Shown here piece by piece: positions 21,301 to 41,212 of a DNA stretch of 64,000 nt. The notes beneath the pieces were generated by a model that searched no databases, was not told the origin of the DNA, and saw nothing but the letters and a program-made list of their open reading frames with translations. How positions within the stretch are numbered: position 1 is the stretch's first letter; each line of letters begins with the position of its first letter. Source of the stretch: Chloroflexota bacterium (GTDB taxonomy: Bacteria; Chloroflexota; Dehalococcoidia; Bin125); assembly GCA_028874365.1 (NCBI GenBank), contig JAPPJZ010000062.1:52611-116610 (forward strand). The letters run 5' to 3'. The translations under genes were made by a program, and so were the position numbers.

Positions 21301-21356
21301 CCCCTCTCCCCCCGCCGCAGGCGGGGGGAGATGTCCCGTAGGGACAGAGGGGGGCA
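21301..21356. repeat. family-A nested-hairpin repeat
   Basis: CCCCTCTCCCCCCGC-cgcag-GCGGGGGGAGATG-tcccgtaggga-CAGAGGGGGGCAC. Confidence 0.75.
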
Positions 21357-21412
21357 CGCCGCGCGCCAACCCTTAGAATCGTGCCAACCTCGGTTGTAAG
21401 GCGGGCAGCGAC

Positions 21413-21964
21413 ATGACCACAGCCAAATCCCGGACTTCGGGCCGAATCGAACAACTCAACGTCTCACCTGGCGGCGTGCCCAAGCGTGCCGTCCCCGAAG
21501 CCGTCGTCAACGAGTACGGCCTCACCCAGGACCGACAGCGCGACCGCCGCCACCACGGCGGCACCGAGCGCGCCGTCTGCCTGTTCTCTGCCGAAATCCT
21601 CGACAGTCTCCGCGCCGACGGCCATCAGATCGGCCCCGGCACAACCGGCGAGAATGTGACCATACGCGGCATCGACTGGAAAAAGCTCGTCCCCGGCTCG
21701 CGCGTTCACCTCGGCGAACAGGTCATCGTGGAGGTCACCTCCTACGCCGCCCCCTGCCGGATCATCGCCCACTGCTTCCGCGACGGCGACTTCAACCGCA
21801 TCAACCAGGCCACGCATCCAGGACGTTCCCGCCTCTACGCACGCGTCGTCCGGCAGGGGACCATGTACCCGGGCGACGACGTCACAATCGAGGCTGACTC
21901 GGCCGCCGACCGAGGCGCTCGACTACAACCCAAAACCACACGTTGGCGTCCGCCCTCGAGCTGA
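21413..21964 (+). CDS. MOSC-domain protein (YiiM-like)
   Basis: GENVTIRGID and surrounding beta-barrel pattern; 183 aa. Confidence 0.7.
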   Translation: MTTAKSRTSGRIEQLNVSPGGVPKRAVPEAVVNEYGLTQDRQRDRRHHGGTERAVCLFSAEILDSLRADGHQIGPGTTGENVTIRGIDWKKLVPGSRVHLGEQVIVEVTSYAAPCRIIAHCFRDGDFNRINQATHPGRSRLYARVVRQGTMYPGDDVTIEADSAADRGARLQPKTTRWRPPSS

Positions 21965-22096
21965 TTTCCTCCCCCCGGAATCCGTAGCGCCGTTGCAATC
22001 AATGGCGCCTGCGCAGTGATACTCTGCGCGCACGCGAATACGAATGTCCAATCGAGAGAACGCGACTCGCCAGGTCTTTGGAACGGGAGCAGAACG

Positions 22097-22702
22097 ATGA
22101 CCACCGAAGCATCCGCCCGCCAGGCCGCCCTGATCGCACGGCGATACCCCAGTCGCGCCACCCTACGCGGCGGCCGCGAGATCGACATGCGCCTGATGGC
22201 CCCCGCCGACAAGGCCCGCTTCCTCGCCTTCGCCCGCTCGCTCTCACGCGACGACTTGCTCTACCTGCCCTGGGACATCACCGACGAAGGCGTGGTTGAC
22301 CGCTGGCTGGAGAACATCGCCGAACATCGCACCACTACCGTCCTTGCCGTGGACTCCGGAGACATCGTCGGCGAGGCGTCGTTGGTCCACAACGAAGCGG
22401 GCTGGACCGACCACATCGGAGAAATCCGCGTCACCGTCAACTCCCAGATCCGCGGCCAGGGTCTCGGCCGATTCCTGGCCGAGGAGATCTTCGCCATCGC
22501 CGACTCCATCGGCCTCGAGCGCATCTCCGCCCGCATGACCCACGATCAGCTCAGCGCGCAGGCCGTGTTCGAGTCTCTCGGCTTCCAGGCCGTCGCGACC
22601 CTGCCCGGCTGGGTCATGGACCGCAGCGGCCGTCTCCGCGACCTCGTCGTCATGGCCTACGACCTCCGCGCCCGAGGCGCTCCCACCTCCGCCCAACGCT
22701 GA
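22097..22702 (+). CDS. GNAT-family N-acetyltransferase
   Basis: Acetyl-CoA pocket IRGQGLGRFL; start MTTEAS at 22097 with GGGAGC SD. Confidence 0.75.
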   Translation: MTTEASARQAALIARRYPSRATLRGGREIDMRLMAPADKARFLAFARSLSRDDLLYLPWDITDEGVVDRWLENIAEHRTTTVLAVDSGDIVGEASLVHNEAGWTDHIGEIRVTVNSQIRGQGLGRFLAEEIFAIADSIGLERISARMTHDQLSAQAVFESLGFQAVATLPGWVMDRSGRLRDLVVMAYDLRARGAPTSAQR

Positions 22703-22756
22703 AGCTTGTCGCTGCCGCTCTCCCTGCGCAGCGGGCGTTTCGCCGACCTCCCCGTT

Positions 22757-22807
22757 CCCCTCTCCCCCCGCGCAGCGGGGGGAGATGCCGAAGGCAGAGG
22801 GGGGCAC
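22757..22807. repeat. family-A nested-hairpin repeat (identical to copy at 38691)
   Basis: cccctctccccccgcgcagcggggggagatgccgaaggcagaggggggcac, 51/51 identical to 38691-38741. Confidence 0.8.
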
Positions 22808-22915
22808 ACCAACACGCGCTGATGCTGCGCTGTCCTCACAGGCGCCCGCCCGCCCCCACGCTTCCGCCATTGCACCTATCCTGTCGGGACAACCCATGGC
22901 ACGACAGGACCTCCG

Positions 22916-24283
22916 ATGACCACCCCGACCCAGGAAGCGCTACGCAAGCAATCGCTGGAACACCTCTGGATCCCCACCCAGTCGCACGCCGACCTCGCGG
23001 CCGACGATGGATTGCTGGTCATCCGTAAAGGCGAAGGAATCTTCCTGCACGACGACCAGGGACGCGAGTACATGGACGCCATGTCCGGTCTCTGGCTCAA
23101 CGCGGTCGGACACGGTCGCACCGAACTCGCCGACATCGCACATGAGCAGATGTCGCAACTCGCTTACCAGAACACCTTCGCCTACGCCTCCGAGCCGGCC
23201 GTCAACCTGGCCACCAAGCTCGCCGAACTGACGCCCTCAAACATTCGCAAGGCCGTCTTCGTCAACGGCGGATCTGAAGCCGTCGAAACCGCTCTCAAGA
23301 TCGCCAAGCAGTACCACCGCATCCGAGGCAACGCCGCCAAGTTCAAGGTGATCTCGCGGATCGGTTCCTACCACGGCCAGACCGCCGGCGCGCTCTCGGT
23401 CAACGCCGCAACCTACTCAATGCGCGCCCCCTACGAGCCGCTGGTGCCGGGCTCGATCCACGTGCCCGGCGTCAACTGCGACCGTTGCCCCTACGAAAAG
23501 ACCTTCCCCGAGTGCGACGTCTTCTGCGCGCGCACCATCGAGGATGTCGTGACGGCGGCCGGCCCCGACACGGTCGCGGCGATCATCGCCGAGCCGATCT
23601 CCACTGCCAACGGCAGCTACGTCCCCGACCGGAAGTACTGGCAGACGCTGCGCGAGATCTGCGACAAACATGACATCGTGCTGATCGCCGACGAGGTGAT
23701 CAATGGCTTCGGCCGCACCGGCAAGTGGTTCGGCATGGACCACTTCGGCGTCCAGCCCGACATCATGACCACAGCCAAGCAAATCTCATCCGGCTACTCG
23801 CCCATTGCCGCCACGCTCGTCAGCGATGAAATCGCCAAGACCTTCGAAGAGGCCGGCAAGGACGGCACGATCGGCGGGATCACCTGGGGCGCAAACCCCG
23901 TCTCCTGCGCCGTCGCGCTCGGCAACCTCAACATCATCGAACGCGAGGGTCTCGTCGAGAATTCCGCCCGCGTCGGCGAGCACGTACGCTCCCGACTCGT
24001 GCAACTGCGCGAGGAGCATCGCACGATTCACCACACTCGCGGGATCGGCATGATGCACGTCGTCGAGCTAAAGAAGGATCCGCTGACCGGCGAGGACTTC
24101 GACGAAGCCGACAACGTGCAGGCGCGGATGACCCAGTACATGAGGGACGAAGGCGTCCTCGCACGGGCCGGTACCTCGGTTCCGTTCGCCCCGCCGCTGA
24201 CCACCAACCTCGAAGAGGCCGACGAGTTGGTCAACCGCATTTCCCGCTCAATCGCGAGGCTCGAATCCGAGTTGGGTCTGTAG
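22916..24283 (+). CDS. class-III (omega-type) PLP-dependent aminotransferase
   Basis: VNGGSEAVE, DEVINGFGRTG, K-containing TTAKQISSGY; 455 aa. Confidence 0.85.
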   Translation: MTTPTQEALRKQSLEHLWIPTQSHADLAADDGLLVIRKGEGIFLHDDQGREYMDAMSGLWLNAVGHGRTELADIAHEQMSQLAYQNTFAYASEPAVNLATKLAELTPSNIRKAVFVNGGSEAVETALKIAKQYHRIRGNAAKFKVISRIGSYHGQTAGALSVNAATYSMRAPYEPLVPGSIHVPGVNCDRCPYEKTFPECDVFCARTIEDVVTAAGPDTVAAIIAEPISTANGSYVPDRKYWQTLREICDKHDIVLIADEVINGFGRTGKWFGMDHFGVQPDIMTTAKQISSGYSPIAATLVSDEIAKTFEEAGKDGTIGGITWGANPVSCAVALGNLNIIEREGLVENSARVGEHVRSRLVQLREEHRTIHHTRGIGMMHVVELKKDPLTGEDFDEADNVQARMTQYMRDEGVLARAGTSVPFAPPLTTNLEEADELVNRISRSIARLESELGL

Positions 24284-24379
24284 GGAGAACTGAAAACCCG
24301 CAAGCCGCCTGAGCGCAGCGCCCGCCGGTCGAGAGCACAGCGGGCCGCGGTCAGGCGGCGTGTCTGTGGTCGGGAAGCG

Positions 24380-24715
24380 CTAGAACGTACTCAGCGCGCC
24401 GGGGCGGTCGTCGTGGATCGGAATAATCTCCGCGAAACCGGAGAACTTGAACACTTCCTGGATGTGATCCTGCACCGCACAAAGCGCAAGTTGGCCGGCC
24501 GACTGACTGGTTCGCTTGGCGGCCATCAAGAGGACCCTGAGCCCGGCCGAGGAGATGTAGTTGATCCCCTCGAAATTCATCAAGATCTGATTGTCCCCCG
24601 CGTCGATTCGGCCGAGTAGCGCCTCTTCGAACGCCTTCGCATTGGTCCCGTCGATTCGTCCGAGCGGGTTCAGCACCAGCACGCTGTCGTCGTATTCCGG
24701 GTAAAGGTCAACCAT
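24380..24715 (-). CDS. STAS-domain anti-sigma-factor antagonist (SpoIIAA/RsbV-like)
   Basis: 111 aa; phospho-acceptor region INYISSAGLRVLL. Confidence 0.8.
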   Translation of the reverse strand: MVDLYPEYDDSVLVLNPLGRIDGTNAKAFEEALLGRIDAGDNQILMNFEGINYISSAGLRVLLMAAKRTSQSAGQLALCAVQDHIQEVFKFSGFAEIIPIHDDRPGALSTF

Positions 24716-24754
24716 CAGTCGTCTCCTCTATCGGCCTGAAGCGGCGTGACTAGC

Positions 24755-26803
24755 TTATTCCGAATCATCCTCAGACGTCGCCCGCGTTTGTCTCAACGTC
24801 GTGACATTGCGGTCATCAATCCGCTCGTAGTTTACCGCATCGAATGTCGATGCAATCAGCTGCAGGCCGAGTCCACCGATCGGCCGCTCGAGCAGGTCCA
24901 ACTCCGTGTCCTGCCCCGTCGCCTCCAGCGGATTGAATGCGGGGCCGTTGTCCTCGTAGCGAACCACGATCGTCTCGCCTTCCCGGCGCATCGCGATCGA
25001 GATGTCCGCTTCGTTCTCTCGACCCGGGAACCCATGCTCGATCGTGTTCGTGAACAGCTCGTCCAGCGCCAGGTTGATCCGATACAGCTCCATCGGATCG
25101 AACCCCTCTGTTTCGGCGAACCGCTCAACGAAGGCGGCTACCCGCGGGAGCGACGTCTCCAGAGTCGGCTGTACCACCATGCGCCGCCATCCCGACGCCA
25201 GGTGCGTCTCACCGCGCCCTGGGATGAACGGCTCTTCAAGCGCCCCGCCGACGAACTGAACCGCCATACACGTAATGTCGTCGAACTGCTTGGCGTCGCC
25301 CGAGAACGTGCGCAGGTCGGTCAGCACCGACTCCATCAGCTCCTGCGGGCCCTCACCGTTGAGCCCGGCGAGCTTCTCTTCCAGCCGCTCCCGACCGAAC
25401 TGCTGCCCGGCAACGTCCTCCGCCTCCGTGATTCCATCGGTGTAGAGGAACATCGACGCCCCTTCATCGAGCGGAATCGTCGTCTCCGTGTAGTTGAGCT
25501 CCGGCAGCACGCCGAGCGCGATCCCGCCGGTCATCGGGATCATCTCCGGCCCCTCATTCGGGCGCATCAGGTACGGCGGATCGTGGCCCGCATTCACATA
25601 GGTCAGCGTGCCCAGCTCCAGATCAATCACACCGAAGAACGCCGTGATGAAGAGTTCCTTCGGATTCATCGAGCAGAGCTGGTCGTTCGTCTCGGCAACG
25701 GCCATGCTCGGGTCGGCATGCTGATTCGCCGCGCTCCGCAACAGCGCGCGTCCAACCGCCATCATCAACGCCGAGGCCACGCCCTTGCCCGACACGTCCG
25801 CGATCGCGAACGCCAGGTGCCCGTGATCGGTGATGAACGCGTCGTAGAAGTCGCCGCCCACATCCAGCGCAGGCGTCATGAACGCGGCTACGCCGGCGCG
25901 CGGATCTTCCGGCAGGTCCGACGGCACCAGCGCCGCCTGCACCGAGTGCGCCATCTCCAGGTCGTTGCGAATCTCGCGCTGCGCATCCTCAAGCGCCTGG
26001 TTCTTCTCCGACAACTCAACCGTGCGCTCCTCGACGATCGCATTCAGTCTGATCTCACGTGCGCCGACCTCGCGAGCCATGTCCAGGAACACGCCCGCCA
26101 GCTCCCCGTACTCGTCGCGCGTCAACGATGTGTTCCGCAGCGATGCAGCGACCGACGGTTCCGGTTGCTGCCCGTCTTCGACCGCCCGCGCGGCGCGAAC
26201 CATCAATCCAATCGGGCGCGCCAGCCGCTTGGCCAGGAACCAACTGGCCAGCACCAGCAGCAGCAGCAGGGCGATCACCCCGATCAGGTACTCGAGCCGG
26301 TACAGATCGAAGTGATTGCCGATGTGATTGCTCGTGAACTCGACCCTGACCGCACCGAGAGGACTACCGTCCTCGGCGCGGATCGCCGCCGTCCCGGCGT
26401 AGCGACCGTCGGTCAGCGCCTCGACGACCGCTCCGTCGCCGCCCTCCATCGCCTGGCGCGCACTTGCCACCTCAGTCCGACTGATCGGTCGCGAGCCGTC
26501 CGAGGACGCCGCAAGCCGCGCCTGCACATTGAACACCCAGATGTTGTCCAGGTCGACGGCTTCCCCCTCGACGTCAGCCGCGGAAGCCGCGTTCAAACGA
26601 ATCAGTGCGTTGACTTCATCTTCGCTCAGCGACGCCAGGTCGGCTTCCAGCAGCGAACGCGCAATCGCCTCGGCAAAGACCTCTGCCGACTTGCGTCCCG
26701 TGTCACCCTCTGAATCCAGCGCAAGCAGCAGCAGCACGACTGCCGAAGCGATCACCCCGGCGAGCGTCAGGACGGAGATCATGCCGACGATGCGCCCAGC
26801 CAT
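24755..26803 (-). CDS. membrane sensor PP2C (SpoIIE-type) phosphatase fused to C-terminal GHKL/RsbW-like serine kinase domain
   Basis: TM1, ~150-aa outside loop, TM2+HAMP, PP2C (DVSGKGVASALMM...YVNAGH...LYTDGITEA), then HATPase_c (LALDELFTNTIEHG). Confidence 0.8.
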   Translation of the reverse strand: MAGRIVGMISVLTLAGVIASAVVLLLLALDSEGDTGRKSAEVFAEAIARSLLEADLASLSEDEVNALIRLNAASAADVEGEAVDLDNIWVFNVQARLAASSDGSRPISRTEVASARQAMEGGDGAVVEALTDGRYAGTAAIRAEDGSPLGAVRVEFTSNHIGNHFDLYRLEYLIGVIALLLLLVLASWFLAKRLARPIGLMVRAARAVEDGQQPEPSVAASLRNTSLTRDEYGELAGVFLDMAREVGAREIRLNAIVEERTVELSEKNQALEDAQREIRNDLEMAHSVQAALVPSDLPEDPRAGVAAFMTPALDVGGDFYDAFITDHGHLAFAIADVSGKGVASALMMAVGRALLRSAANQHADPSMAVAETNDQLCSMNPKELFITAFFGVIDLELGTLTYVNAGHDPPYLMRPNEGPEMIPMTGGIALGVLPELNYTETTIPLDEGASMFLYTDGITEAEDVAGQQFGRERLEEKLAGLNGEGPQELMESVLTDLRTFSGDAKQFDDITCMAVQFVGGALEEPFIPGRGETHLASGWRRMVVQPTLETSLPRVAAFVERFAETEGFDPMELYRINLALDELFTNTIEHGFPGRENEADISIAMRREGETIVVRYEDNGPAFNPLEATGQDTELDLLERPIGGLGLQLIASTFDAVNYERIDDRNVTTLRQTRATSEDDSE

Positions 26804-26863
26804 GCACAGATATTAACGATTCTGATACTCAGGTGCTATCGAGAGCCGAGCAGGGCTCCAGTC

Positions 26864-27682
26864 TCAGATGTTTATCAGGCTCGATGCCGAGCAAGCGCCG
26901 TACGCGCCGCTTCTGTCTCCCAACACCGCCTGCGCCGTCGCCACGCCGTCAGCCGCTCCGCGCGAGACGACGCGCAGGTAGTGCCAATCACCGACCGGCG
27001 GACGTTGCAGATGCAGAGTGATATCGGCGTTCACATAGCCGCTGCGGCCCGGCTGCATGTTGGCAAAGGGCGAGACGAAATCGGCGATGCTCGCCGCCTG
27101 GACTGCCGGCGTCAACGACGCTTCGGCGAGCACCTGCGCATCGGCCCGTATCCAGACAACGGGCGGCTCCGTGCCGCCGGGTGCAACTACATGTCGCATC
27201 TCAAGCGTGCCCGGGTACGACACCCAGCGGTTGCCCACCCGGTCGACCCTTGCCGGTATTGCATCCTCGGGTCGAGGGGGCGCCTCATGAGCATGCTGCG
27301 CGCCAACCGCACCGAAGCTGACATCTCCGCGCAGACATAGTGTTGTGGCCTGCGTGAGCGGTGTCCCGTCGCAACTCACTCGTGTCTGGTAGACCGCAAC
27401 CCGACGGCCTTCACGGATCGACTCGACATCAAGGTTCAGCCGCCCGAACGGCACCGGACGGAAGAGATCAATCGTCTGCCTGGCAATGCGCAGCTCGCCG
27501 GTTACGCCCGATTCGCCCCGCGTCGAACGAAGCAACTCCAGCTCAACGCAATGGGCGATCAGCGCCGCAACCGGGCTCCCATGCAACGCATCGCGCGACC
27601 AGGGCCCGCGCGCCCGGTCGGTCGGTACGTAACACTCCCCGTCGCGCGCAAACAATGCCCCATCGAGCGCACGCTCAGTCAC
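26864..27682 (-). CDS. thioesterase-superfamily protein (double hot-dog, TesB-like)
   Basis: 272 aa, two hot-dog halves; assignment by overall pattern. Confidence 0.5.
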   Translation of the reverse strand: MTERALDGALFARDGECYVPTDRARGPWSRDALHGSPVAALIAHCVELELLRSTRGESGVTGELRIARQTIDLFRPVPFGRLNLDVESIREGRRVAVYQTRVSCDGTPLTQATTLCLRGDVSFGAVGAQHAHEAPPRPEDAIPARVDRVGNRWVSYPGTLEMRHVVAPGGTEPPVVWIRADAQVLAEASLTPAVQAASIADFVSPFANMQPGRSGYVNADITLHLQRPPVGDWHYLRVVSRGAADGVATAQAVLGDRSGAYGACSASSLINI

Positions 27683-27731
27683 AGCGCCGCCGGGCGCATC
27701 CGGCTGGCTCGTTGCGAGCGGACGGGCGTCA

Positions 27732-28052
27732 CTACTGGATCGGAGAGCGAGGCGTCGCTTCCAGACGCTGGACCGAGATACTGTCGCGGCTCATCATCTC
27801 CGAGACGTGCGGCGCAATCTCGTCCCGCCAGTAGTCCGAGCCATACACGTCTTCGTAGAGTCGCTCCCGCTCCTCCTCCGAGTGGAAGCGGCGAATCCAG
27901 ATGTACGTGTTGTCATCCTCTTCCGAGGTGAACGACCCCAGAATCGTCATACCCTTCGACACCTGGAAGGGAATGATCTGCTCTTCCATCAAGCGGACGA
28001 AATCTTCGCGGCGTCCCTCATTGATCGTGTACTGACGAAGTTCAAACAACAT
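27732..28052 (-). CDS. NIPSNAP-family protein
   Basis: MLFELRQYTINEGRREDFVRLMEEQ...WIRRFHSEEERERLYE. Confidence 0.7.
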   Translation of the reverse strand: MLFELRQYTINEGRREDFVRLMEEQIIPFQVSKGMTILGSFTSEEDDNTYIWIRRFHSEEERERLYEDVYGSDYWRDEIAPHVSEMMSRDSISVQRLEATPRSPIQ

Positions 28053-28154
28053 GACCTGACTGCCCTCCAGGCTGCGTAGACGCCCCGCCGCTCAGTGCCA
28101 ACACATTGACAGCGGGGCCAATGACTGTGCGTATGCTACCGCGCTAGGCTCCCG

Positions 28155-28664
28155 CTATTGGCTGGTTGCCGGACGAGTACCGAACGTCGTCGTCGAGGTG
28201 ACCACCGGCGGCGCGTCGGATCGGGAAGCCGGAGCCGAACCCGATCCGCCCCCGCTCGCGAGCAGCGACCAACGGTTGCGTCCGTTGTTCTCGATCTCGC
28301 CCATTTCCTTCATCCGCTGCAGCGTCGACTGCAACGTCGGCATCGGCTTGGCGGACTGCGGAGCAGCATCCTGCTTCTCGAGGAACGCGAGGATCTCCGT
28401 CGCGTGTACCGGCCCGCTCTGCTGACCGAGGAACTCACGCACCTTGCCGGTAATCAGGCCTCGCGGTCGGCGCGTGCGCTTGGCGCCGCCCGCGGTCCGT
28501 CGAGCGGCTCGACGCCGCGCCGGCCGAGGCGCGCTGGGAGTACCGCCCGACGATTCGTTACTCAGTAACTCCTGAATCAGGCGCCGCTTGTTCTCCAGGC
28601 GGTCAATCTCTGTCTGGATTGCCGCAAGTTCGGACTGCAGTTGCCCAGTAAACGTGTCGGCCAT
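28155..28664 (-). CDS. hypothetical protein, N-terminal coiled coil, basic linker, C-terminal winged-helix-like region
   Basis: Start MADTFTG at 28664 with GGAGGG SD; AT-rich promoter-like region upstream (TTGACG...TATACT). Confidence 0.5.
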   Translation of the reverse strand: MADTFTGQLQSELAAIQTEIDRLENKRRLIQELLSNESSGGTPSAPRPARRRAARRTAGGAKRTRRPRGLITGKVREFLGQQSGPVHATEILAFLEKQDAAPQSAKPMPTLQSTLQRMKEMGEIENNGRNRWSLLASGGGSGSAPASRSDAPPVVTSTTTFGTRPATSQ

Positions 28665-33210: not shown

Positions 33211-34608
33211 CTATGCGAACTGGTACTCAGGTGACGCGATCACCAGCCGCAGCGCCTGGGCAGCGCGCTGGCCCGCTTCCTCGACCGCGTCGTCGCCGTC
33301 GAACGACAACTCGCCGCCCGCCGACGCCGCCTCGAGCAGCGCCGCTCGGGTGTTGTCCGAGACCTCCAGCGGTCCAGCGAAATCGAGTGTTGCGTTGACG
33401 AGCTCTTCGGGACTGCTCGCCCCGATCTCCTGCAGCCGACTGACCAGCTCCTGTACGCCTGGCGCAGACGTGTCGGAGACGAGCTTCGAGGCGAAGTTGA
33501 TCCGCTCCATCAGCGTGCCGCCGTCGATCCATTCCTTGCCCGTGTGCCAGCCTTCGACCGACGGTGGGTCCATCAGGCTCTGGCCCATCGCGCCCATCGT
33601 CATGTGCAGATTCCACATCTCGGCTTGCGGCACTCCGAGCTTGCCCGACAGCTTGTATGCGCCGGCCACCCATTCGGCCGGACACTTGACGCGCTCGTAA
33701 CGAGCCTCTTTGAACCACTCCGCGTTGAACAGCACGCGCATCACTGCGCGCAGGTCGCCGTTCGACTCCGCGAAGGCGGACGCAAGCTCGGCCACAGCCT
33801 CGGGATTGCCCGGGTCGGTCACCGACCAGGCCGACACGCCCGGCTCGTCCTTGACGAAGAAGTTGTACAGGTGTCGCCCGATGAAGCGGCCTGTCGCCGG
33901 CTGCTGGACGATGATGTCGATGATGTCCTCGCCGTTGAAATTGCCCGTGTGGCCGAGGAACTCCTTCTCCGAGTGATCGTGCAAATCGTCGCGATACACG
34001 AAGCGCGCCGGGTATCCGCCGTGCGGGTAGAGCGGAATCGGCTGCTCGAACGTCCAGCCGGTGAAGCTGTACGCCGCCGCCTTGATGTCGTCCTCGGTGT
34101 AGTTGCCCACACCCATCGAGAACAGCTCAAGCAGTTCGCGACCGTAGTTCTCGTTCGGGGCGCCGACAACCGACTCGCTGTTGTCCAACCAGAAGATCAT
34201 CAACGGGTCGCGCGACAGTTCCGTCAACAGCACGCGCATGTTGGCCAGACCGTGCTCGCGGAACATCTGGATATGCACCGGCATGGACGGTCCGTGCTCC
34301 GACTTGAACCAGGCCGTGGCGAAAACGTGGTGCCAGAACAGTGCCATCTTCTCGCGCAGCGGCGACTCCGAGTTGACCATCCAGTAGATCCAGCGGCCGC
34401 TCCACGGCCACGGTGTATCCGAATTGGCCAACGCCGGGAAGTAGCGGAAGACCAGGTCGTCGTCGTCCTCGGCCATCGTCGGATTGATCAGGTCCTCGAC
34501 AATGTCGGCGTATGGTCGCTTCGCTAGCTCGTCCAGTTCAGCGGGTGTCACGCCCGCCCCGGCGCGACGCATCAGGTGGGCGACCAGCGCTCGTTGGTCG
34601 TCTGACAT
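33211..34608 (-). CDS. DUF1800 protein (partner of DUF1501)
   Basis: Conserved FWHHVFATA... region; preferred start MSDDQRA at 34608 (GGAGAGG SD); alternative ATG at 34659. Confidence 0.75.
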   Translation of the reverse strand: MSDDQRALVAHLMRRAGAGVTPAELDELAKRPYADIVEDLINPTMAEDDDDLVFRYFPALANSDTPWPWSGRWIYWMVNSESPLREKMALFWHHVFATAWFKSEHGPSMPVHIQMFREHGLANMRVLLTELSRDPLMIFWLDNSESVVGAPNENYGRELLELFSMGVGNYTEDDIKAAAYSFTGWTFEQPIPLYPHGGYPARFVYRDDLHDHSEKEFLGHTGNFNGEDIIDIIVQQPATGRFIGRHLYNFFVKDEPGVSAWSVTDPGNPEAVAELASAFAESNGDLRAVMRVLFNAEWFKEARYERVKCPAEWVAGAYKLSGKLGVPQAEMWNLHMTMGAMGQSLMDPPSVEGWHTGKEWIDGGTLMERINFASKLVSDTSAPGVQELVSRLQEIGASSPEELVNATLDFAGPLEVSDNTRAALLEAASAGGELSFDGDDAVEEAGQRAAQALRLVIASPEYQFA

Positions 34609-34776
34609 ATGTGGCACCTCTCCAGAAACGTCCGTGCGCGGGTACGAAAAGTCGGTCAAGCCCGCGCGATTGCTCTACAAGCGCAATATAGGACATGAGA
34701 GGCTTCCAATTGAGTACGTGTGCGTACCATTTCGATTGACTTTGCGGCGCGTGTTGGTTCAGCGAGCCAGGAATTC

Positions 34777-34808
34777 GTCATGCCCGCTCTTGCCGCGGGT
34801 ATCTCGAC
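34777..34808. repeat. family-C hairpin repeat
   Basis: gtcatgcccgctcttgccgcgggtatctcg, 26/30 match to 18496-18525. Confidence 0.6.
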
Positions 34809-34961
34809 CAAATGGGCACGGACTTCAATCACACCGTGGCGAGATTGCTGCGACGGAACGCGGCAATGACGAGGTGACAGTCGACTGGTTTGGGCAGCCC
34901 AACCCGTCGCTATACTGCGCAGCAACTTCAGCAATTCCGTACTCAGTGCCTGGAGCGCTCT

Positions 34962-36716
34962 ATGGGCCTGCACAAGACATCCGGTACCGGCGACAGCGGT
35001 TCGTCCCCCGACTACATGGACCGCAAGACCGCAGCCGCCTACGACCGCTACCGCGAGACCGTCGTCGGACGCGACAACGCCTCTGCGCTCCACCAGGCTT
35101 TTGACCTGATCAAGGACGGCCGACCGACCACCGAGATCCTCTCCGAGACGATTCGCGCGCACGCTCCCTACACCCACGTGCCATACCACCAGCGAATCGA
35201 CTCCGGAATCGTCCGCTTCGTCAACAACGACCACTGCCTGCTCTCCTCACGCGCAACGCTCGGTCTGCAGAACATGGTCTCCGAGGAGATGCGCCACCTG
35301 CCGCTCAGCCAGACCGCCTGGTACGTGCCCACCGGCCTCGATATCTGGAACCAGCTGAAGGGCCGCATGCCAGGTCATTACTCGCGCCGCACTTACGACC
35401 CCGCCAAGTACCCCGACGGCCCGGCCCCGCCCGCCGCTCACTGGGACGACCAGGAACCGGCCGACTACGACGGCTCGCTCGAGGAGGGCCTCAACGACTG
35501 GCTCACCCTCGTCCAGTACGGACACGTCAACGAGGAGTACTCACTCTTCCTCGGTCTTTGGGAGCAGTTCCCCGAGCGCCGCGAAGAAATCCTCGGCCAG
35601 ATGATGTTCGCCGGCCTGATCGACGTCCAGGACCGGATGTTCTGGAACCGCTCTTACACCACCGGCCACAAGTCCTTCCGCGCCCGCAGCACCATCCAGC
35701 TCGGACGCGCGATCGGCTGGGACAACGCCCACCACGTGCTCTACGCCGGCGTGCCCGACATCGCCGTCGGCCCGCGCTGGTACTCGCTCTTCGAGTCCGC
35801 CTGTCAGATCATGATGTACCACCTCGAGGAAGAGCCGCCCGCCTCGTCGCTCAACGCGACCCAGACCTCAACCCGAGACCAGCAACTCTTCAAGAACCAG
35901 ATCCCGCTCTCGCCGCCCGAGGCCGAAGGCCTGATCCGCTCCATCATCCGCGAGCCTGAGGAATCCTACATCGAAGACATCGTCGCGCTGCTCAAGGCCG
36001 GCCGCTCGCCCAAGTCAATCCTCGACGCCATCCAGATCGCCGCCGCCCGCGTCGTGCTCGAATGCGGCCTGCCCGCCAACTTCTCGATGCCCCAGCACGG
36101 CTACGAGTACACCAACATGCTCGGCTGGTTCTACGAGAACTTCGACCACCCGCACAAGACCAAGCTGCTCTTCATCGCCGCCAACTTCATCAACCAATGC
36201 GCGCATTGGGTGACCAACTCCAAGGGCAACAAGACCCGTGGCGCCGCCACCTACTTCGCCGGCTACTCGATGGACGAGGACGCACCGCCGATGACGCAGG
36301 GCAAGCTCCTCGGCGAACTCAACGAGGCCATGCTCGCCCTCGACACCGAGCAATCCGTCTTCTGGGTCGAGAACTATCTCAAGCAGGGCTACGACGACGG
36401 TCCGCTCGTCGAGACCCTCGCCGACGGCATCGCCAAACAAGGCAACGATCCGCACAACCAGGAAATCGGCCTCTGCATGCTCGAGGACTACCGGCGCACC
36501 ACCTCCGAGATGCGCAACACCCTGTTGCTCTCGGCTGCCCATCACACGGCCGGTCACATGAAGTACGGCGACCAGTACGAGTCCTATCGCTACTTCGCCG
36601 ACGCGTTCGACATGCAGGTTGAGGACGGCTGCCTCGGCGAGACTCCCGTCATCGAGAACCTCGCCGACGACGTCGAGGCCGAACTGCTGGTCTCGGATCC
36701 CGCGAGGGCGACATAG
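34962..36716 (+). CDS. hypothetical soluble protein (~584 aa), no recognisable domain
   Basis: Long ORF with strong GC3 bias; start at MGLHKTS (track ORF begins 34890); no TM segments. Confidence 0.5.
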   Translation: MGLHKTSGTGDSGSSPDYMDRKTAAAYDRYRETVVGRDNASALHQAFDLIKDGRPTTEILSETIRAHAPYTHVPYHQRIDSGIVRFVNNDHCLLSSRATLGLQNMVSEEMRHLPLSQTAWYVPTGLDIWNQLKGRMPGHYSRRTYDPAKYPDGPAPPAAHWDDQEPADYDGSLEEGLNDWLTLVQYGHVNEEYSLFLGLWEQFPERREEILGQMMFAGLIDVQDRMFWNRSYTTGHKSFRARSTIQLGRAIGWDNAHHVLYAGVPDIAVGPRWYSLFESACQIMMYHLEEEPPASSLNATQTSTRDQQLFKNQIPLSPPEAEGLIRSIIREPEESYIEDIVALLKAGRSPKSILDAIQIAAARVVLECGLPANFSMPQHGYEYTNMLGWFYENFDHPHKTKLLFIAANFINQCAHWVTNSKGNKTRGAATYFAGYSMDEDAPPMTQGKLLGELNEAMLALDTEQSVFWVENYLKQGYDDGPLVETLADGIAKQGNDPHNQEIGLCMLEDYRRTTSEMRNTLLLSAAHHTAGHMKYGDQYESYRYFADAFDMQVEDGCLGETPVIENLADDVEAELLVSDPARAT

Positions 36717-36772
36717 CTGGGCGTCATCTCGGCCTCACAGATCGCCCGTTATGAGTGGTACGATCTGCTGAC

Positions 36773-37795
36773 ATGACAACCGCCGAGCTCTCCAGCCGCG
36801 CTACCGACGACGAACCGGAACCACCACATAGTCTGGTCCGGCTGTCCGACGGTCGAGCCCTGAGCTGGACCGAGTATGGCGATCCCACAGGCGAGCCGAT
36901 CTTCTTCCACCACGGACTGCCCTCGTCCCGTGTTGCGGCGGCCGTCATGGCCGACGGCGCCGCACAGTCGGGCGTCCGCCTGATCGCACCGGAGCGGCCC
37001 GGATTCGGTTACTCCGACCCGCTGCCCGGGCGCACAATCTTCGATTGGCCCTCCGACCTGCGCCAGCTCGCTGACTACCTGGAACTCGAAAAGTTCTCCG
37101 TCGCTGGCATCTCCGCCGGCCTGCCCTACACCCTGGCCTGTGCCCTGCTCATGCCCGAGCGCCTCCACCGGGTCGCCTCGATCTCCGGGCTCGGAGTCAT
37201 CGACTCCGGTGAAGTTCTCGAAGGCATGTCCTATGAGTGGCGTCTGATCTACACGCTCTTCCTCAAGTCGCAGCGTCTCGCTTCACTCTGGATGCGCGGT
37301 TACGGCCGTTCCGTGCAGAAGCGCCCGGATCGCGTCGTCGCCGAGCAGATCAAGCGCATGCCGCCGGTCGACGGAGCAGTCCTCGGCTCCGAGCCCACCA
37401 GGACGAACCGAATCACCGACCTCCGCGAGGCCTTCCGCCAGGGTCCGGCCGCCGCCGGCGACGAAGCCCGCCATCACCTCGAGCCCTGGGGCTTCGAGCT
37501 GCGCGACATCGATTTCCCCGTCATGCTCTGGCACGGCATGCTCGACGAGTCGCACCCAATCCAGATGGGCGAGCGCATCGCCTCAGAACTCCCGCAGTGC
37601 CGCCCGATCTACGTCGAGGGCGTCGGTTCCCTCGGCTTCATCGAACACGCCGAGTCAATCTTCAACGAACTCTTCAGCCCACGTCCACGAGTCCGACACA
37701 GCGTCAGCCCGGTCGAGGCCGCCGCCGTCGACGAGGAAGCCGACATCTTCGCCGGCCTCCTCGAAGTCCTCCCAGAACCCCTCGCGGGCGAATAG
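36773..37795 (+). CDS. alpha/beta-fold hydrolase
   Basis: HGLPSSR oxyanion, GISAGLPY nucleophile elbow. Confidence 0.75.
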   Translation: MTTAELSSRATDDEPEPPHSLVRLSDGRALSWTEYGDPTGEPIFFHHGLPSSRVAAAVMADGAAQSGVRLIAPERPGFGYSDPLPGRTIFDWPSDLRQLADYLELEKFSVAGISAGLPYTLACALLMPERLHRVASISGLGVIDSGEVLEGMSYEWRLIYTLFLKSQRLASLWMRGYGRSVQKRPDRVVAEQIKRMPPVDGAVLGSEPTRTNRITDLREAFRQGPAAAGDEARHHLEPWGFELRDIDFPVMLWHGMLDESHPIQMGERIASELPQCRPIYVEGVGSLGFIEHAESIFNELFSPRPRVRHSVSPVEAAAVDEEADIFAGLLEVLPEPLAGE

Positions 37796-37799
37796 CCGA

Positions 37800-38615
37800 T
37801 CAGCCCCTCGCCCAGTTCAGGCTGTTCTTCAGCAGCCGACCGTACTCCTCGGTCTCCCACGTGAACCGCAACGTGCGCGGCATCTCGCCGTCTGCGTCGC
37901 GCGCGTTCTCTTCGACAAACGGCTGTGAGTTCGTCAGCGGCGAGTGACAGTGACCCAGCGCGATGTAGCAGACCCCGCCTTCTCCGATCCCGCGCGTGTA
38001 GCCGAAGACCCGCGTGATGCCGTCAGCTTCAAGCGCCGTGTCTTCCTCGTAGTCGAAGCCGAAGTCGGGATAGTTGTCCGGACCGATCGGCGCCGTTAAC
38101 AGGATGTCGGTGTTCGGCCGATCCGTGATCTCAATCATGTACGGCTCGTCGATTACATCGAACTGCTCCGGGAGCCCTTCGAGAATCGGCGAGTCCACGC
38201 TCTTCACGTCGACCGTGAATCGCTTGATCGGCGGGTGATTGATGAAGAAGCCGCCCAGCGTCTCGTGGTGCTCCATCTTCACCATCGCCCGCTTGCCCTC
38301 GCCGATTCGTGCGGCCTTGCCGCCCGACGTCCCATGCAACCCGACCCAGTGTCCGCCGTTGCCAATCCAGTCGCGCAGGATCTCGTTCTGCGGGTCGTCT
38401 GCGTATGGACCGGCCGTGTAGGTGATCAGCACGTCGGTCACCGGCAACCACTTCCACATATCAGTGAAGTCGTTACCGGTCGTCGCCCGCACGTTGCCAT
38501 CCGAGTACAGCATGTCGAGCAGTCGCAGGCGGGCAAAGTCCATGTCATGACCACCGTGCTGTCCCGGCGGAAAGCCACCCGTCACCACATGTACGCGAGT
38601 CGGTGCGCTGGCCAT
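37800..38615 (-). CDS. ThuA-like (class-I glutamine-amidotransferase-fold) protein
   Basis: ThuA pattern ...GGHWVGLHGTSGG... and GYTRGIGEGGVCYIALGH. Confidence 0.75.
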   Translation of the reverse strand: MASAPTRVHVVTGGFPPGQHGGHDMDFARLRLLDMLYSDGNVRATTGNDFTDMWKWLPVTDVLITYTAGPYADDPQNEILRDWIGNGGHWVGLHGTSGGKAARIGEGKRAMVKMEHHETLGGFFINHPPIKRFTVDVKSVDSPILEGLPEQFDVIDEPYMIEITDRPNTDILLTAPIGPDNYPDFGFDYEEDTALEADGITRVFGYTRGIGEGGVCYIALGHCHSPLTNSQPFVEENARDADGEMPRTLRFTWETEEYGRLLKNSLNWARG

Positions 38616-38690
38616 CTTGACCTCATTTCAGGTTCAGCATCGAGCGATGGCCAAATGATAGGCGAACCACGAATCGGCCGAATCTCCACT

Positions 38691-38742
38691 CCCCTCTCCC
38701 CCCGCGCAGCGGGGGGAGATGCCGAAGGCAGAGGGGGGCACT
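38691..38742. repeat. family-A nested-hairpin repeat (identical to 22757 copy)
   Basis: See 22757-22807. Confidence 0.8.
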
Positions 38743-38861
38743 CCAAGCCGTCGCTCTCCCGACCCGGGAACTATATCCCGCTTTACATCGTCTAGCTCCC
38801 TAACGGGGCGGCAGCCGGTCGTCAATCTGGCGCCCCGAGAACAGTCGGTCAGGAGGACCAC

Positions 38862-40721
38862 GTGTACGAGAACCCCACCCGAGCCAGAGTCCCGAGATGG
38901 ATTCGCATCCTCGCCCCGCCAATGATCATCTTGGCGGTGCTCGCGGCGGCAACGCTCTCCATTGCCTGCAGCGACGACGAACAGGCTGAGAGCGAACAGC
39001 CGGTTCGACAGTCCGTCGCTCAGGTCGAGGAGCAGCAACAGCAGGAGATGCAACAGGCGGCGCAGCAGCAGGAGGTTCAGCAGCAGGCTGTGTCCTACGA
39101 GCAAGAAGCGCAGGAGCAGTCATACGACTACCAGGAGCAACAACAGGCAGAGCAGCAAGAGCAAGCCGCCGCACAGGAAGCGATGCAGGAACAGGAGGAG
39201 GCCGAGCAGGCCGCCTCCGACAGCTCCCGCTCTCGTCGCCAGCAGCGCGAGCAGCGTTCGAGCGAGGAACAACGCACGCCGCGACGATCGCTGCCCGGTT
39301 CAACCAACTTCGAGGACTACGCCACCACCGGATGGCGTGACACCGTCGACGACGACACCTCCACCTTCTCGCTCGATGTCGATCGCACTTCTTACTTCCT
39401 CGCCCTCAACTGGGTCGAGGCGGGCTACGCAATCGAACCGGCCTCCGTCCGCGCCGAGGAATGGATCAACGCCTTCAACTACAACTACGAACTGCCCGAC
39501 GGCACGAACAGCTTCGCGGTCACCACTGACATCGTTGAGCACCCGCTGCACGACGACCTGCACCTCGTCCGAATTGCGACCCAGGCGCCCGAGTTCGTCG
39601 ACAACACGCCGCTCAACGTGACGCTCGTGCTGGATTCGTCCGGTTCGATGGGCACGGGCAATCGCGTGGAAATCGCCCGCGCCGCTGCCGACTCCATCCG
39701 CCGCGGACTGAGCAGGGACGACCGGATCGCCGTCGTGCTGTTCTCCGACTACATCGTCGACTACGAGGAACACCAGCGTCCCGGCGATCGCGACATCGAG
39801 CGGATTATCGGCCGGCTCACGCCGCAAAGCTCCACCAACGTGCAGGCCGGCCTGAACCTCGGTGTCGAGTTGGCCGACGACGCGAGGCGCGATCGACCTG
39901 ATGCCTACAACTACGTGATCCTCATGTCCGACGGCGTCGCGAACGTCGACGCCACCGACCCCTTTGCCATCTTGCGCACGGCCGAGGACCGCGACGACTC
40001 CAACCCGCTTCGTCTGATCACCGTCGGCGTCGGCATCGAGAACTACAACGACGTGCTGCTGGAACAGCTCGCCCAGCATGGCAACGGCTGGTACCGCTAC
40101 CTGCAGGATGTTGCTCAGGCCCGGTCGACCTTCAGTCGCGACAACTGGCTGGCCCTCTCGATCCCCTTCGCCGACCAGGCCCGCGCACAGGTCCGCTGGG
40201 ATCTCGATGCTGTCGCGGCCTGGCGTCTGGTCGGCTACGAGAACCGGGTCACTGCCGACCGCAACTTCGATGAGGCCCGCAAGGAGTTCGCAGAAATCCC
40301 GATGGGCTCGGCCACGACGATGTTCTTCGAGGTTGAACTGACGAACGACGCGATCCGTAGGGACGTCATTGACCTCGGCGAAATCGAACTCAAATGGCTG
40401 GTTCCCATGTCCGATGAGTCGAGAAGCCAGCAGGTCGGGATGGTGTCCGACATTGTCGGATTCGGCGACGATGACATGCTGGACCTGGGATCAGTCGTCG
40501 CTCTCGCCGCCGACCGCTACAGCTGGTTCGGCCAGGACGGCCTCAGCAGCGAGACCATCAGCCTCGCTGCCGAGCACCTCGATGAGATTGCCTGGTGGTT
40601 CGAGGAACTGCCGGCCGGCATCCTCAGCTCCCAGGCCGGCCAGGACTTGTCCCGACTCCTCGTCGCCATGGGAGCCATCGCCGACCAGCACGACACCGAG
40701 GACCCCGGCTACTCCCGCTAA
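38862..40721 (+). CDS. von Willebrand factor A-domain lipoprotein (YfbK-like) with Q/E-rich linker
   Basis: GTG start with GGAGGA SD; lipobox LSIAC; MIDAS motif DSSGSMG; ~100-aa Q/E low-complexity region. Confidence 0.8.
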   Translation: MYENPTRARVPRWIRILAPPMIILAVLAAATLSIACSDDEQAESEQPVRQSVAQVEEQQQQEMQQAAQQQEVQQQAVSYEQEAQEQSYDYQEQQQAEQQEQAAAQEAMQEQEEAEQAASDSSRSRRQQREQRSSEEQRTPRRSLPGSTNFEDYATTGWRDTVDDDTSTFSLDVDRTSYFLALNWVEAGYAIEPASVRAEEWINAFNYNYELPDGTNSFAVTTDIVEHPLHDDLHLVRIATQAPEFVDNTPLNVTLVLDSSGSMGTGNRVEIARAAADSIRRGLSRDDRIAVVLFSDYIVDYEEHQRPGDRDIERIIGRLTPQSSTNVQAGLNLGVELADDARRDRPDAYNYVILMSDGVANVDATDPFAILRTAEDRDDSNPLRLITVGVGIENYNDVLLEQLAQHGNGWYRYLQDVAQARSTFSRDNWLALSIPFADQARAQVRWDLDAVAAWRLVGYENRVTADRNFDEARKEFAEIPMGSATTMFFEVELTNDAIRRDVIDLGEIELKWLVPMSDESRSQQVGMVSDIVGFGDDDMLDLGSVVALAADRYSWFGQDGLSSETISLAAEHLDEIAWWFEELPAGILSSQAGQDLSRLLVAMGAIADQHDTEDPGYSR

Positions 40722-40750
40722 CACCCTCACTACCGCCATTCCCTTTCTAC

Positions 40751-40797
40751 CCCCGCCGGCAGGCGGGGGGAGATGTCACGAAGTGACAGAGGGGGCG
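40751..40797. repeat. family-A nested-hairpin repeat
   Basis: cccccgccggcaggcggggggagatgtcacgaagtgacagagggggcgc. Confidence 0.7.
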
Positions 40798-40885
40798 CAT
40801 CCCACACACCAAGGGACTCCCCACCCTCCCAAGATTCGATACAATCAGAACATACGTACACCTACGACCCAGGGAGCCTCCCAAC

Positions 40886-41212
40886 ATGCCCAACCCCTAC
40901 CACTTCCGAGCACGGATCGACCGAATCTGCCGGCGCGCCTTCGGCAACGGACCCGGCTACCTCCGCCTCAAGGCCCTCAACACTCTCGTCCGCGAACTCC
41001 ACGCCCCCAACGACCGAGCCCGGGCCAACCACCAGATGTATCTCGCCACCGACCCCTACGACGTCGCCCGCCACCAGCTCCGCTACCTCCACGACTCCGC
41101 CTCTCTTTCCTCTCTCCCCCCGCCGTCAGGCGGGGGGAGATGTCTCGTAGAGACAGAGGGGGGCCTCCCACAGGACCAACAACGACCCGACGAAGACGAC
41201 GACCCCTTGTAG
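40886..41212 (+). CDS. small conserved hypothetical protein (MPNPYHFR... family), paralog of 49854..50159; contains an in-frame family-A repeat
   Basis: About 45% identical over the first 73 aa to the minus-strand ORF at 50159; shared MPNP(Y/F)H(F/Y)R N-terminus and ...EDDDPL C-terminus; GGGAGC SD. Confidence 0.45.
   Translation: MPNPYHFRARIDRICRRAFGNGPGYLRLKALNTLVRELHAPNDRARANHQMYLATDPYDVARHQLRYLHDSASLSSLPPPSGGGRCLVETEGGLPQDQQRPDEDDDPL
41110..41166. repeat. family-A repeat embedded in frame in ORF 40886..41212
   Basis: cctctctccccccgccgtcaggcggggggagatgtctcgtagagacagaggggggcc, translated as SLSSLPPPSGGGRCLVETEGG. Confidence 0.7.

Follow-up and report, generated by a model that had tools for sequence, protein, structure and literature searches.

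A dispersed DNA repeat of Chloroflexota with two hairpins, a mirror-image purine tail and the sequence layout of intrastrand triplex elements

Results

The stretch of DNA analysed here (64,000 nucleotides of a Chloroflexota bacterium, assembly GCA_028874365.1, contig JAPPJZ010000062.1, positions 52,611 to 116,610; hereafter the window) carries seven copies of a short repeat, termed family A, in which a 9-nt pyrimidine tract (S1) and a complementary 9-nt purine tract (S2) are followed by a third tract (S3) that is the mirror image of S2 and not its complement. There is very little doubt that this is a real repeat family of the REP (repetitive extragenic palindromic) and BoxC kind, with the sequence layout Y-R-RH. 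The full statement, that family A is a high-copy, non-autonomous structured DNA repeat which resembles BoxC/PIT/TMECO and acts as single-stranded DNA, is the reading we favour, at slightly better than even confidence; that a single-stranded DNA triplex is its functional state is put forward tentatively. The preliminary description of this DNA, which had reported a nested-hairpin repeat with REP-like or transposon-like mobility, mentioned neither the mirror symmetry between the purine tracts nor the link to intrastrand triplex repeats.

Two hairpins and a mirror-image purine tail

Read on one strand, the unit consists of S1 (TCTCCCCCC), a loop, S2 (GGGGGGAGA), one unpaired T, a mini-hairpin of 3-5 bp and S3 (AGAGGGGGG), usually followed by CAC or CTC. 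The first hairpin is extended above S1/S2 by 2-3 additional G-C pairs and closed by a variable 3-4-nt loop. The mini-hairpin occurs in two subtypes, short (GCC-GNA-GGC) and long (GTCNC-GNA-GNGAC), with a GNA triloop in 130 of 139 mini-hairpins and a C-G closing pair in all 139; DNA mini-hairpins of the type d(C-GNA-G) are exceptionally stable. Stem and conservation statistics were calculated from 150 aligned family A copies: standard pairs occupy 98.2% of the stem cells, compared with 44-85% after a shift of the partners by 1-3 columns; 84 copies have CG and 63 have UA as the second mini-hairpin pair, a compensatory change; and the third pair of the long type varies by copy (C-G, A-T, T-A or G-C).

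The DNA-fold z-scores of the copies range from -2.7 to -5.6, and the centroid DNA fold of every window copy shows two adjacent hairpins and then an unpaired purine tail (folding was modelled with Watson-Crick and G-U/G-T pairs only). A 4-bp outer stem (5' CCCC with 3' GGGG) appears only in the minimum free energy (MFE) folds of the copies at 21301, 22757 and 38691, and is absent from their centroids. The 5' CCCC, the only possible Watson-Crick partner of the tail, is complete in 57 of the 150 copies and missing in the rhizobial copies described below, whereas the tail AGAGGGGGG is conserved at 95-100% per position; the constant design is consequently two adjacent hairpins plus a conserved purine tail. 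The nested hairpin reported earlier therefore stands as far as the two hairpins and the tail are concerned, its outer stem being confined to the three MFE folds. A G-quadruplex was set aside because each unit has only two G-tracts.

The DNA scanned for relatives covered 240 loci (2.1 Mb in total, not whole genomes). The pattern GGGGGGAGATG-N6-14-CAGAGGGGG, applied to one genome per species, gave at least 119 loci, and a scan of viral contigs at least 120. A relaxed search admitting any purine triplets at the junctions (last three of S2/first three of S3) gave 234 matches: AGA/AGA (208), AAG/GAA (12), AGG/GGA (5), GAG/GAG (2) and GGG/GGG (3, an uninformative poly-G at the start of locus L100), with non-mirror junctions in only four. 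S1 alters in step with the junction variants (CTT, CCT, CTC). One such triple change is found in the window copy at 31842 (CCTCCCCTC in S1, GGGGGGAGG in S2 and GGAGGGGGG in S3). Mirror triads number 9 of 9 in six window copies and 8 of 9 in the copy at 40746; the first hairpin is Watson-Crick at 9 of 9 positions in five of them, and at 8 of 9 in 31842 (one G.T) and 40746 (one A.G).

The same rule was recovered without reference to the tail, by collecting all perfect pyrimidine-purine hairpins in the 2.1 Mb and recording the best mirror score within 22 nt. The scores were bimodal, over a background with its centre at 5: 219 of 470 strand views (190 at 9/9, 29 at 8/9) reached 8 or more of 9 mirror triads, which corresponds to about 93% of the hairpins, each hairpin being seen on both strands, and the direct-repeat control reached 9/9 only 3 times. 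The rule is obeyed by at least eight different sequence families, and departures of the third tract from mirror identity put T opposite A (for example GGGAGAAGG/GGATGAGGG and GGGAGAGGG/GGGTGAGGG). The antiparallel purine-motif triple helix is built of exactly these triads, G*G.C, A*A.T and T*A.T; its code permits T opposite A, which Watson-Crick alternatives do not. Judged from these comparisons, the support for a triplex pairing rule appears unusually clear.

In its sequence, family A has the Y-R-RH layout of the class II purine-motif intrastrand triplex repeats. The tract order of the class II motif is present in 7 of 7 window copies and in the 150 aligned copies, and the window copies carry the antiparallel mirror third tract by which the class is defined (stem 6-15 nt, at most one mismatch). 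When the strand with the purine face becomes single-stranded, S1 and S2 would make a Watson-Crick hairpin, S3 would then lie antiparallel to S2 in the major groove with G*G.C and A*A.T triads, forming a class II purine-motif triplex, and the mini-hairpin would provide its compact second loop; self-pairing of this loop leaves one T unpaired. The folded single-stranded DNA (hairpins with or without triplex) would be the state seen by selection or by a trans-acting enzyme, and may be exposed in replication, repair or transcription. Spread or homogenisation could proceed via single-stranded DNA intermediates in replication or repair with the help of a trans-acting factor, most copies presumably having little effect on the neighbouring genes. 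The window (64 kb) contains no gene for the mobilising agent.

The seven copies in the window

A covariance model built from 30 copies, with which the entire window was scored with filters off, returned exactly seven full-length matches (51-77 bits). These are the seven copies reported previously and no others, and their shared architecture can be read at all seven positions as it was first written. Matches below 30 bits correspond to the palindromic first hairpin on the opposite strand or to weak similarity to a second repeat family. The copies are:

Copy 1, 21301-21357, plus strand, long subtype (covariance match 21295-21358, plus strand, 66.4 bits): CCCC, S1 TCTCCCCCC at 21305-21313, GCC-GCA-GGC, S2 GGGGGGAGA at 21323-21331, T, mini-hairpin GTCCC-GTA-GGGAC, S3 AGAGGGGGG at 21346-21354, CAC; 9 nt past the stop of a FAD oxidoreductase/halogenase-like gene (19628-21292) and followed by a MOSC gene (21413-21964).
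Copy 2, 22757-22807, plus strand, short subtype, identical to copy 4 (match 22751-22808, plus strand, 77.2 bits): S1 at 22761-22769, loop GC-GCA-GC, S2 at 22777-22785, T, GCC-GAA-GGC, S3 at 22796-22804; between a GNAT gene (22016-22702) and an aminotransferase gene (22916-24283).
Copy 3, 31842-31893, plus strand, long subtype, the mirror variant given above, with S2 at 31859-31867 and S3 at 31882-31890 (match 31832-31894, plus strand, 57.6 bits); between the minus-strand genes 30792-31814 (NHL repeat) and 31978-33141 (DUF1501), antisense to both.
Copy 4, 38691-38741, plus strand, short subtype, equal to copy 2 over 51 nt and 94% identical over 64 nt (match 38685-38742, plus strand, 76.9 bits); in the divergent spacer between 37800-38615 (ThuA-like, minus) and 38862-40721 (vWA, plus).
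Copy 5, 40746-40796, plus strand, long subtype, slightly decayed (match 40736-40799, plus strand, 51.0 bits): S1 TCTACCCCC (one mismatch), mini-hairpin GTCAC-GAA-GTGAC, S3 AGAGGGGGC; between the vWA gene and a small open reading frame (ORF, 40886-41212).
Copy 6, 41113-41163, plus strand, long subtype, mini-hairpin GTCTC-GTA-GAGAC (match 41103-41167, plus strand, 66.9 bits); in frame within ORF 40886-41212, encoding ..LPPPSGGGRCLVETEGG.. in the linker before an acidic C-terminus.
Copy 7, 58605-58648, minus strand, short subtype, mini-hairpin GCC-GCA-GGC (match 58601-58658, minus strand, 72.3 bits); the sole family A copy beyond the change of GC-skew sign in the window.

As reported before, all copies but one are intergenic (6 of 7, with spacer lengths of 120-246 nt wherever the genes on both sides were confidently called), the exception being copy 6 in its conserved ORF. 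The 51-mer shared by the copies at 22757 and 38691 was confirmed as identical and found 0 times in 100 dinucleotide-preserving shuffles, and the core hairpin pattern CTCCCCCCGC-N2-8-GCGGGGGGAG has 5 exact matches in the window versus 0 expected, so the abundance lies above chance; the structure is likewise conserved among the copies. That the copies are Rho-independent terminators, or chance matches in G/C-rich low-complexity DNA, is hardly credible. They do place GC-rich hairpins shortly after stop codons, but no T run follows any copy, a terminator scan of 21250-41240 lists none of the copies there, and chance is opposed by the shuffles together with the covariation and the cross-species conservation. 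The PIT/BoxC relatives have neither promoter nor terminator activity (PMC4666352), and the terminator role suggested earlier is not supported.

The complete identity of the copies at 22757 and 38691 had been taken as a sign of recent copying, for which it is weak evidence: about 40 of the 51 positions are near-invariant family-wide and across species, and, on the sequences compared, the identity of copies is probably due largely to constraint or homogenisation, because copy 6 is identical at 52 of 52 nt to its counterpart in a gene that is only 78% identical. What stands of that claim is the combination of the loops GCA and GAA in both copies, absent from 34 exact-stem copies of other genomes, so that a common origin of the two within this genome is likely. 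About 20 nt before the copy at 22757 stands a degenerate hairpin (GCCGCTCTCCCTGCGCAGCGGGCG, 22713-22736) that is similar to the family A first hairpin and may be a decayed neighbouring unit.

The window is ordinary chromosomal DNA (G+C 62-68% in 2-kb windows) with metabolic and housekeeping genes and one tRNA-Asp. It matches metagenome-assembled genomes (MAGs) of Dehalococcoidia (Chloroflexota) at 75-91% nucleotide identity across several kilobases, OZ244861.1 being its nearest relative among the matches listed. These matches argue against a planctomycete origin, which the DUF1501, DUF1800 and NHL genes had at first suggested. Rfam at gathering score detected only the tRNA-Asp in the window and no family for the repeat; a permissive Rfam scan of copy 2 gave chance-level matches only (E > 0.4). 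BLAST of the 51-mer against plasmid and phage collections gave no match, which is uninformative, as the low-complexity filter probably masks the G/C runs, and a literature search by sequence strings and element-encoded peptides returned nothing relevant.

Distribution and arrangement in other genomes

The loci gathered from relatives belong mostly to MAGs of Dehalococcoidia, Anaerolineae and other Chloroflexota. Those outside the phylum include, among the matches listed, isolates or MAGs of Mesorhizobium, Phyllobacterium, Ensifer, Neorhizobium, Pararhizobium and Aureimonas, a Rhodobacteraceae MAG, three Oscillospiraceae loci and a Flavobacteriaceae MAG. Every locus listed has the upstream C-tract hairpin and the small hairpin in the gap, and these are therefore not chance matches. 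The covariance model found 180 copies in 96 Chloroflexota loci, again among the matches listed. Intragenic copies amount to about 8% (crude gene call), and copies lie nearer to the end of the upstream gene (median about 58 nt) than to the next gene (141 nt). Tail-to-tail inverted pairs make up about one third of the family A copies in relatives (more than 30 pairs; none in the window), and they joined a short and a long subtype in 12 of 12 pairs examined.

Larger arrangements were also observed. L104 (OZ241982.1) contains at 2781-3341 a BIME-like cluster formed by a 367-nt tandem duplication, each unit of which holds one unit of the second repeat family (family B, below), a short and a long family A copy tail to tail, and other palindromes; the same 367-nt spacing in the window (40739/41106) was considered and rejected as coincidence, only the elements themselves being homologous. 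In L015 (6826-6890, the Rhodobacteraceae MAG) and L070 (a Phyllobacteriaceae MAG) two full modules are inverted around a 4-nt loop as a near-perfect palindrome, a long palindrome of this type having a folding energy of -94 kcal/mol, and at many viral-contig loci pairs stand head to head, about 120 nt apart.

Turnover, constraint and in-frame copies

Comparison with relatives revealed filled and empty sites. Two sites in the window are empty:

9308-9312, between the convergent genes 8739-9308 and 9312-12659, whose stop codons are 3 nt apart; a relative (L110) has a 61-nt family A unit exactly between these stops.
53163-53237, within gene 52073-54511, a CoA-transferase fusion, at its interdomain linker; a close relative (L082, 87-91% nucleotide identity) has an in-frame antisense family A copy in this linker.

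The spacer with the copy at 22757 is about 150 nt longer than that of L020, which has no copy there; the L020 spacer orthologous to that of the copy at 21301 holds the other subtype; and L081 has a copy at the place equivalent to copy 5, upstream of its small-ORF ortholog. A further comparison (L094 with window 30756-30793) was rejected as a second filled/empty pair, its alignment being too ambiguous. Together with the 98.2% paired stem cells and the compensatory changes in the mini-hairpin, the filled and empty sites bear out a REP-like dispersed structured repeat. They do not extend to the conventional miniature inverted-repeat transposable element (MITE) that had also been proposed, namely an insertion sequence (IS) deletion derivative with terminal inverted repeats and target-site duplications, moved by a DDE transposase, which is very unlikely here. 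Small size, a palindromic first hairpin, many copies and presence/absence differences would suit such an element; but the unit is strand-asymmetric (hairpin, mini-hairpin, tail) and lacks terminal inverted repeats at its ends, the single clear filled/empty pair (L110) has at its junctions at most an ambiguous 2-nt GC repeat, Pfam detected neither transposase nor integrase genes in the 64-kb window, and neither an IS nor a longer parent element was seen in the 2.1 Mb of loci.

Several copies lie in frame inside genes. Besides the one in the CoA-transferase linker, one copy splits the Lyase_1 domain of an argininosuccinate lyase (Anaerolineales MAG) and another lies in the G domain of MnmE (AT-rich Flavobacteriaceae contig). 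In the window, copy 6 is hosted by one of two paralogous small ORFs:

40886-41212, plus strand, 108 aa, no Pfam match, with copy 6.
49854-50159, minus strand, paralog, 101 aa, 40% identity, without the element (34 nt instead of 55 nt at the site, frame kept).

The small ORF is a real conserved gene, present in three other genomes (L040, L081, L082), with a conserved 70-aa N-terminal domain, a variable linker and a C-terminal motif (D/E)EDDDPL; this acidic C-terminus presumably resembles the C-terminal tail of SSB. Neither the paralog nor the L081 and L082 homologs have copy 6, which is identical to its counterpart in the L040 ortholog at 52 of 52 nt, including both loops and the rare GTCTC/GAGAC stem. 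At the divergence of the surrounding ORF (78% identity to L040) about 11 differences would be expected in the element, so the identity suggests that the nucleotide sequence is itself constrained or that gene conversion has homogenised the copies. The linker has a palindromic DNA sequence of its own, which encodes EVAPAQAGA; two orthologs have acquired a family A unit there and the L082 paralog a family B-like one (..FPLPPGEG..), and repeat units stand about 90 nt upstream of 3 of 5 small-protein genes.

Orientation and GC skew

Orientation was compared with local GC skew (+/-4 kb, elements masked) in solitary copies. The purine face lies on the C-skewed strand in a ratio of 51:10 at |skew| >= 0.04 and 40:4 at |skew| >= 0.08; the ratio is 54:11 in the independent viral-contig set and 12:1 in TMECO-like copies of the genome loci and the window. 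Within the window the skew is about -0.1 to -0.25 before, and +0.13 to +0.19 after, about 44000-48000, switching near 46 kb independently of gene direction, and all 13 copies of families A and B are on the plus strand before the switch and on the minus strand after it. No DnaA-box cluster was found near the switch at about 46 kb, which may mark an origin, a terminus or the boundary of an inversion.

An unlikely rival to a DNA-level repeat is an RNA-level cis element, whose sense hairpins at gene 3' ends or between cistrons would guard mRNA from 3' exonucleases or set processing points, a role also suggested for REPs. The copies have stable RNA folds; between co-directional genes, solitary copies are sense in 25 cases and antisense in 8; their greater nearness to the end of the upstream gene fits; stem mismatches are G.T in 13 cases and A.C in 4, an excess that fits selection at the RNA level or a strand-specific single-stranded DNA state; and REPs are reported to share both the location bias and the G.T excess (PMC3733652). 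The orientation, however, tracks GC skew within the sense (21:4) and the antisense (8:0) classes alike, the copy at 31842 is antisense to both neighbours, the one at 38691 stands in a divergent promoter region, and none has a T tract. GNA triloops are moreover a stability motif of DNA and not of RNA. In most copies the strictly conserved mirror purine tail would find nothing to pair with in RNA, and RNA does not form purine-motif triplexes (PMC4666352). Sense copies may nevertheless stabilise RNA as a side effect.

Family B and known repeat systems

The window contains a second family, B, with the same Y-R-RH grammar as family A but a short second loop. Its copies are:

18567-18599, plus strand, exact TMECO pattern: CCCTCTCCC-TCT-GGGAGAGGG-TTG-GGGTGAGGG.
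51915-51947, minus strand, exact TMECO pattern, second loop TTA ('type A' loop).
19429-19463 and 33176-33206, plus strand, and 50266-50311 and 52004-52036, minus strand: further family B copies.

Four family B copies in the window have the core GGGAGAGGG-N2-4-GGGTGAGGG, and the tail differs in those at 19429 and 50266 (TTAGAGCCTGCCCC). A third palindromic repeat (GTCATTCCCGCG-CTTGC-CGCGGGAAT..) occurs twice, at 18496-18542 and 34777-34823, with 77% identity. Elsewhere in the window, the plus-strand ORF 54571-57993 (1140 aa) fuses biotin carboxylase, biotinyl carrier and carboxyltransferase domains and adjoins the duplicated CoA-transferase family III fusion at 52073-54511, and two neighbouring minus-strand ORFs for FtsX-like permeases (9312-12659 and 12659-15901, 1115 and 1080 aa) have overlapping stop and start codons.

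BoxC/PIT/TMECO is the class II intrastrand triplex motif 5'-CCCTCNCCC-N3-6-GGGNGAGGG-N3-GGGNGAGGG (Holder et al. 2015, PMC4666352; preceded, as cited there, by Hoyne et al. 2000), with 3610 occurrences recorded from 262 proteobacterial genomes. All its copies in E. coli K-12 lie between genes, a link with sequence variability of the surrounding DNA is described, it has two second-loop subtypes whose inverted pairs always join type A with type B, and its isolated single-stranded DNA is a stable triplex in vitro (PMC4666352). Family A resembles it in having three 9-nt tracts ordered pyrimidine, purine, mirror purine; in loops that vary while the tracts stay conserved; in being multi-copy and intergenic; in subtypes that differ in the second loop and pair as inverted heterodimers; and in its variable presence among relatives, with no associated transposase found in the DNA scanned. 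It differs in the tracts (TCTCCCCCC/GGGGGGAGA/AGAGGGGGG against CCCTCNCCC/GGGNGAGGG/GGGNGAGGG), in a second loop of 10-14 nt with a C-GNA-G mini-hairpin (3 nt in BoxC), in a first hairpin longer by 2-3 G-C pairs, in its host phylum Chloroflexota, in its in-frame intragenic copies, and in a strong orientation bias by GC skew, E. coli TMECO having none relative to replichores. As family A has no match to the TMECO pattern and a second loop beyond published limits, its sequence suggests a structural variant of the triplex class and not TMECO in the strict sense.

With REP/BIME units and REPINs, family A shares short, GC-rich, imperfect palindromes that number in the hundreds, situated mostly after genes and between co-directional or convergent genes, as well as head-to-head or tail-to-tail dimers, mosaic clusters of different unit types and occasional copies in ORFs (PMC3733652). 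Unlike REPs, it has no GTAG or CGTC tag at either end, GTA being only one GNA loop variant, and it has a conserved unpaired purine tail and a core common to several phyla. The classical REP/REPIN route, with units moved in trans by a single-copy REP-associated tyrosine transposase (RAYT, of the HUH Y1 type) acting on hairpins of the lagging-strand template, seems to us improbable. Hairpin repeats, inverted dimers, intergenic preference, rare intragenic copies and strand bias are typical of REP/RAYT and IS200/IS605 (PMC3733652, PMC6006769), and the tail-to-tail dimers resemble REPINs. Against this, the conserved tag is missing at both ends, and the search for a cognate RAYT, proposed earlier, was negative in the window and the 240 related loci, tblastn with E. 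coli RayT giving only weak matches to enolase and argininosuccinate lyase. REP families are normally lineage-specific and the family A core crosses phyla; Rhizobiales, from which few or no tnpA-Y1 genes are reported (PMC6006769), also contain that core in abundance. Given the negative RAYT search in these loci, the missing tag and the reported scarcity of Y1 genes in Rhizobiales, the route is possible but unproven. In genomes that seem to have few copies of the element (Oscillospiraceae L018 and L109, Rhodobacteraceae L015, Flavobacteriaceae L028), the genes beside the copies were housekeeping genes only, with no cognate gene among them.

RPE-1 and intragenic REPs are discussed in PMC3733652; like them, family A enters proteins in frame in linkers or loops (the small ORF, argininosuccinate lyase, MnmE, CoA-transferase). 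Unlike RPEs, which are confined to Rickettsia, it is unrelated in sequence and its intragenic copies are a minority. RPEs are also longer, about 100-150 bp. In Mesorhizobium, Phyllobacterium, Ensifer, Neorhizobium and Aureimonas the same module as family A takes the form GATCTCCCCCC-loop-GGGGGGAGATG-(NCC-GGCA-GGN)-CAGAGGGGGG, with a 4-nt GGCA loop and no 5' CCCC. Dozens of palindromic repeat families whose function is not known are annotated in rhizobial genomes (PMC2573895). The rhizobial copies may correspond to a named family such as RIME, the Sm-repeats or the AB and C palindromes of Sinorhizobium meliloti.

Discussion

A single-stranded DNA repeat with Y-R-RH layout best accommodates these results, and a number of points weigh against it, especially against its triplex. 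The second loop of family A (10 nt in the short and 14 nt in the long subtype of the window, up to 16 nt in other subfamilies) exceeds the published limits (1-6 nt in ITxF, 0-10 nt in the search of Hoyne et al.). In family A the triplex is predicted from the sequence rule, the evidence of T opposite A coming from sister families, and the pattern used to gather the loci demanded both purine tracts. In many Dehalococcoidia copies a shared TCT (or CTTC), together with the upstream CCCC, pairs with either purine tract, and such a two-state Watson-Crick junction could likewise favour mirror symmetry inside family A. In vivo DMS (dimethyl sulfate) footprinting of TMECO gave no stable triplex, and its double-stranded DNA stayed duplex (PMC4666352). 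The excess of G.T mismatches and the sense bias between co-directional genes described above would suit selection on RNA as well. As to orientation, the sign of the skew is patchy along the chromosomes of relatives (8-kb pieces), the strand bias may not reflect replication, and of 13 solitary E. coli TMECO (PMC4666352, Table 1) 8 fall on the leading and 5 on the lagging strand, by our own count from the positions of oriC and ter.

A wider and more doubtful proposal is a cross-phylum superfamily that would unite family A, the BoxC-like family B and several rhizobial families: strand-specific hairpins with a mirror purine tail whose tracts co-evolve under the triplex code, the single-stranded DNA triplex being functional, held by a d(C-GNA-G) clasp, and either recognised by an undiscovered mobilising or processing enzyme or selected against on one replication template. 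If true, it would account for the skew bias, for conservation above that of the coding sequence, and for the colonisation of protein linkers from Bacteroidota to Chloroflexota.

BoxC/PIT/TMECO has remained a puzzle: abundant, highly conserved and triplex-forming in vitro, with no demonstrated function or mode of spreading. Family A is of a known general kind (REP/BoxC-like) with an architecture and a phyletic range that appear to be undescribed. It would widen the class of triplex repeats to a new phylum and to units with a hairpin inside the second loop, which the loop limits of published finders exclude, and the triplex pairing rule gains more support from natural covariation among many sequence families than one conserved sequence could give it. 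In practice, these repeats yield spurious ORFs and peptide insertions and break assemblies in the MAGs of Chloroflexota and Rhizobiales. The skew bias, the nucleotide conservation inside coding sequence and the in-frame insertions into housekeeping genes in remote phyla provide testable handles on non-B DNA as a selected state in bacteria.

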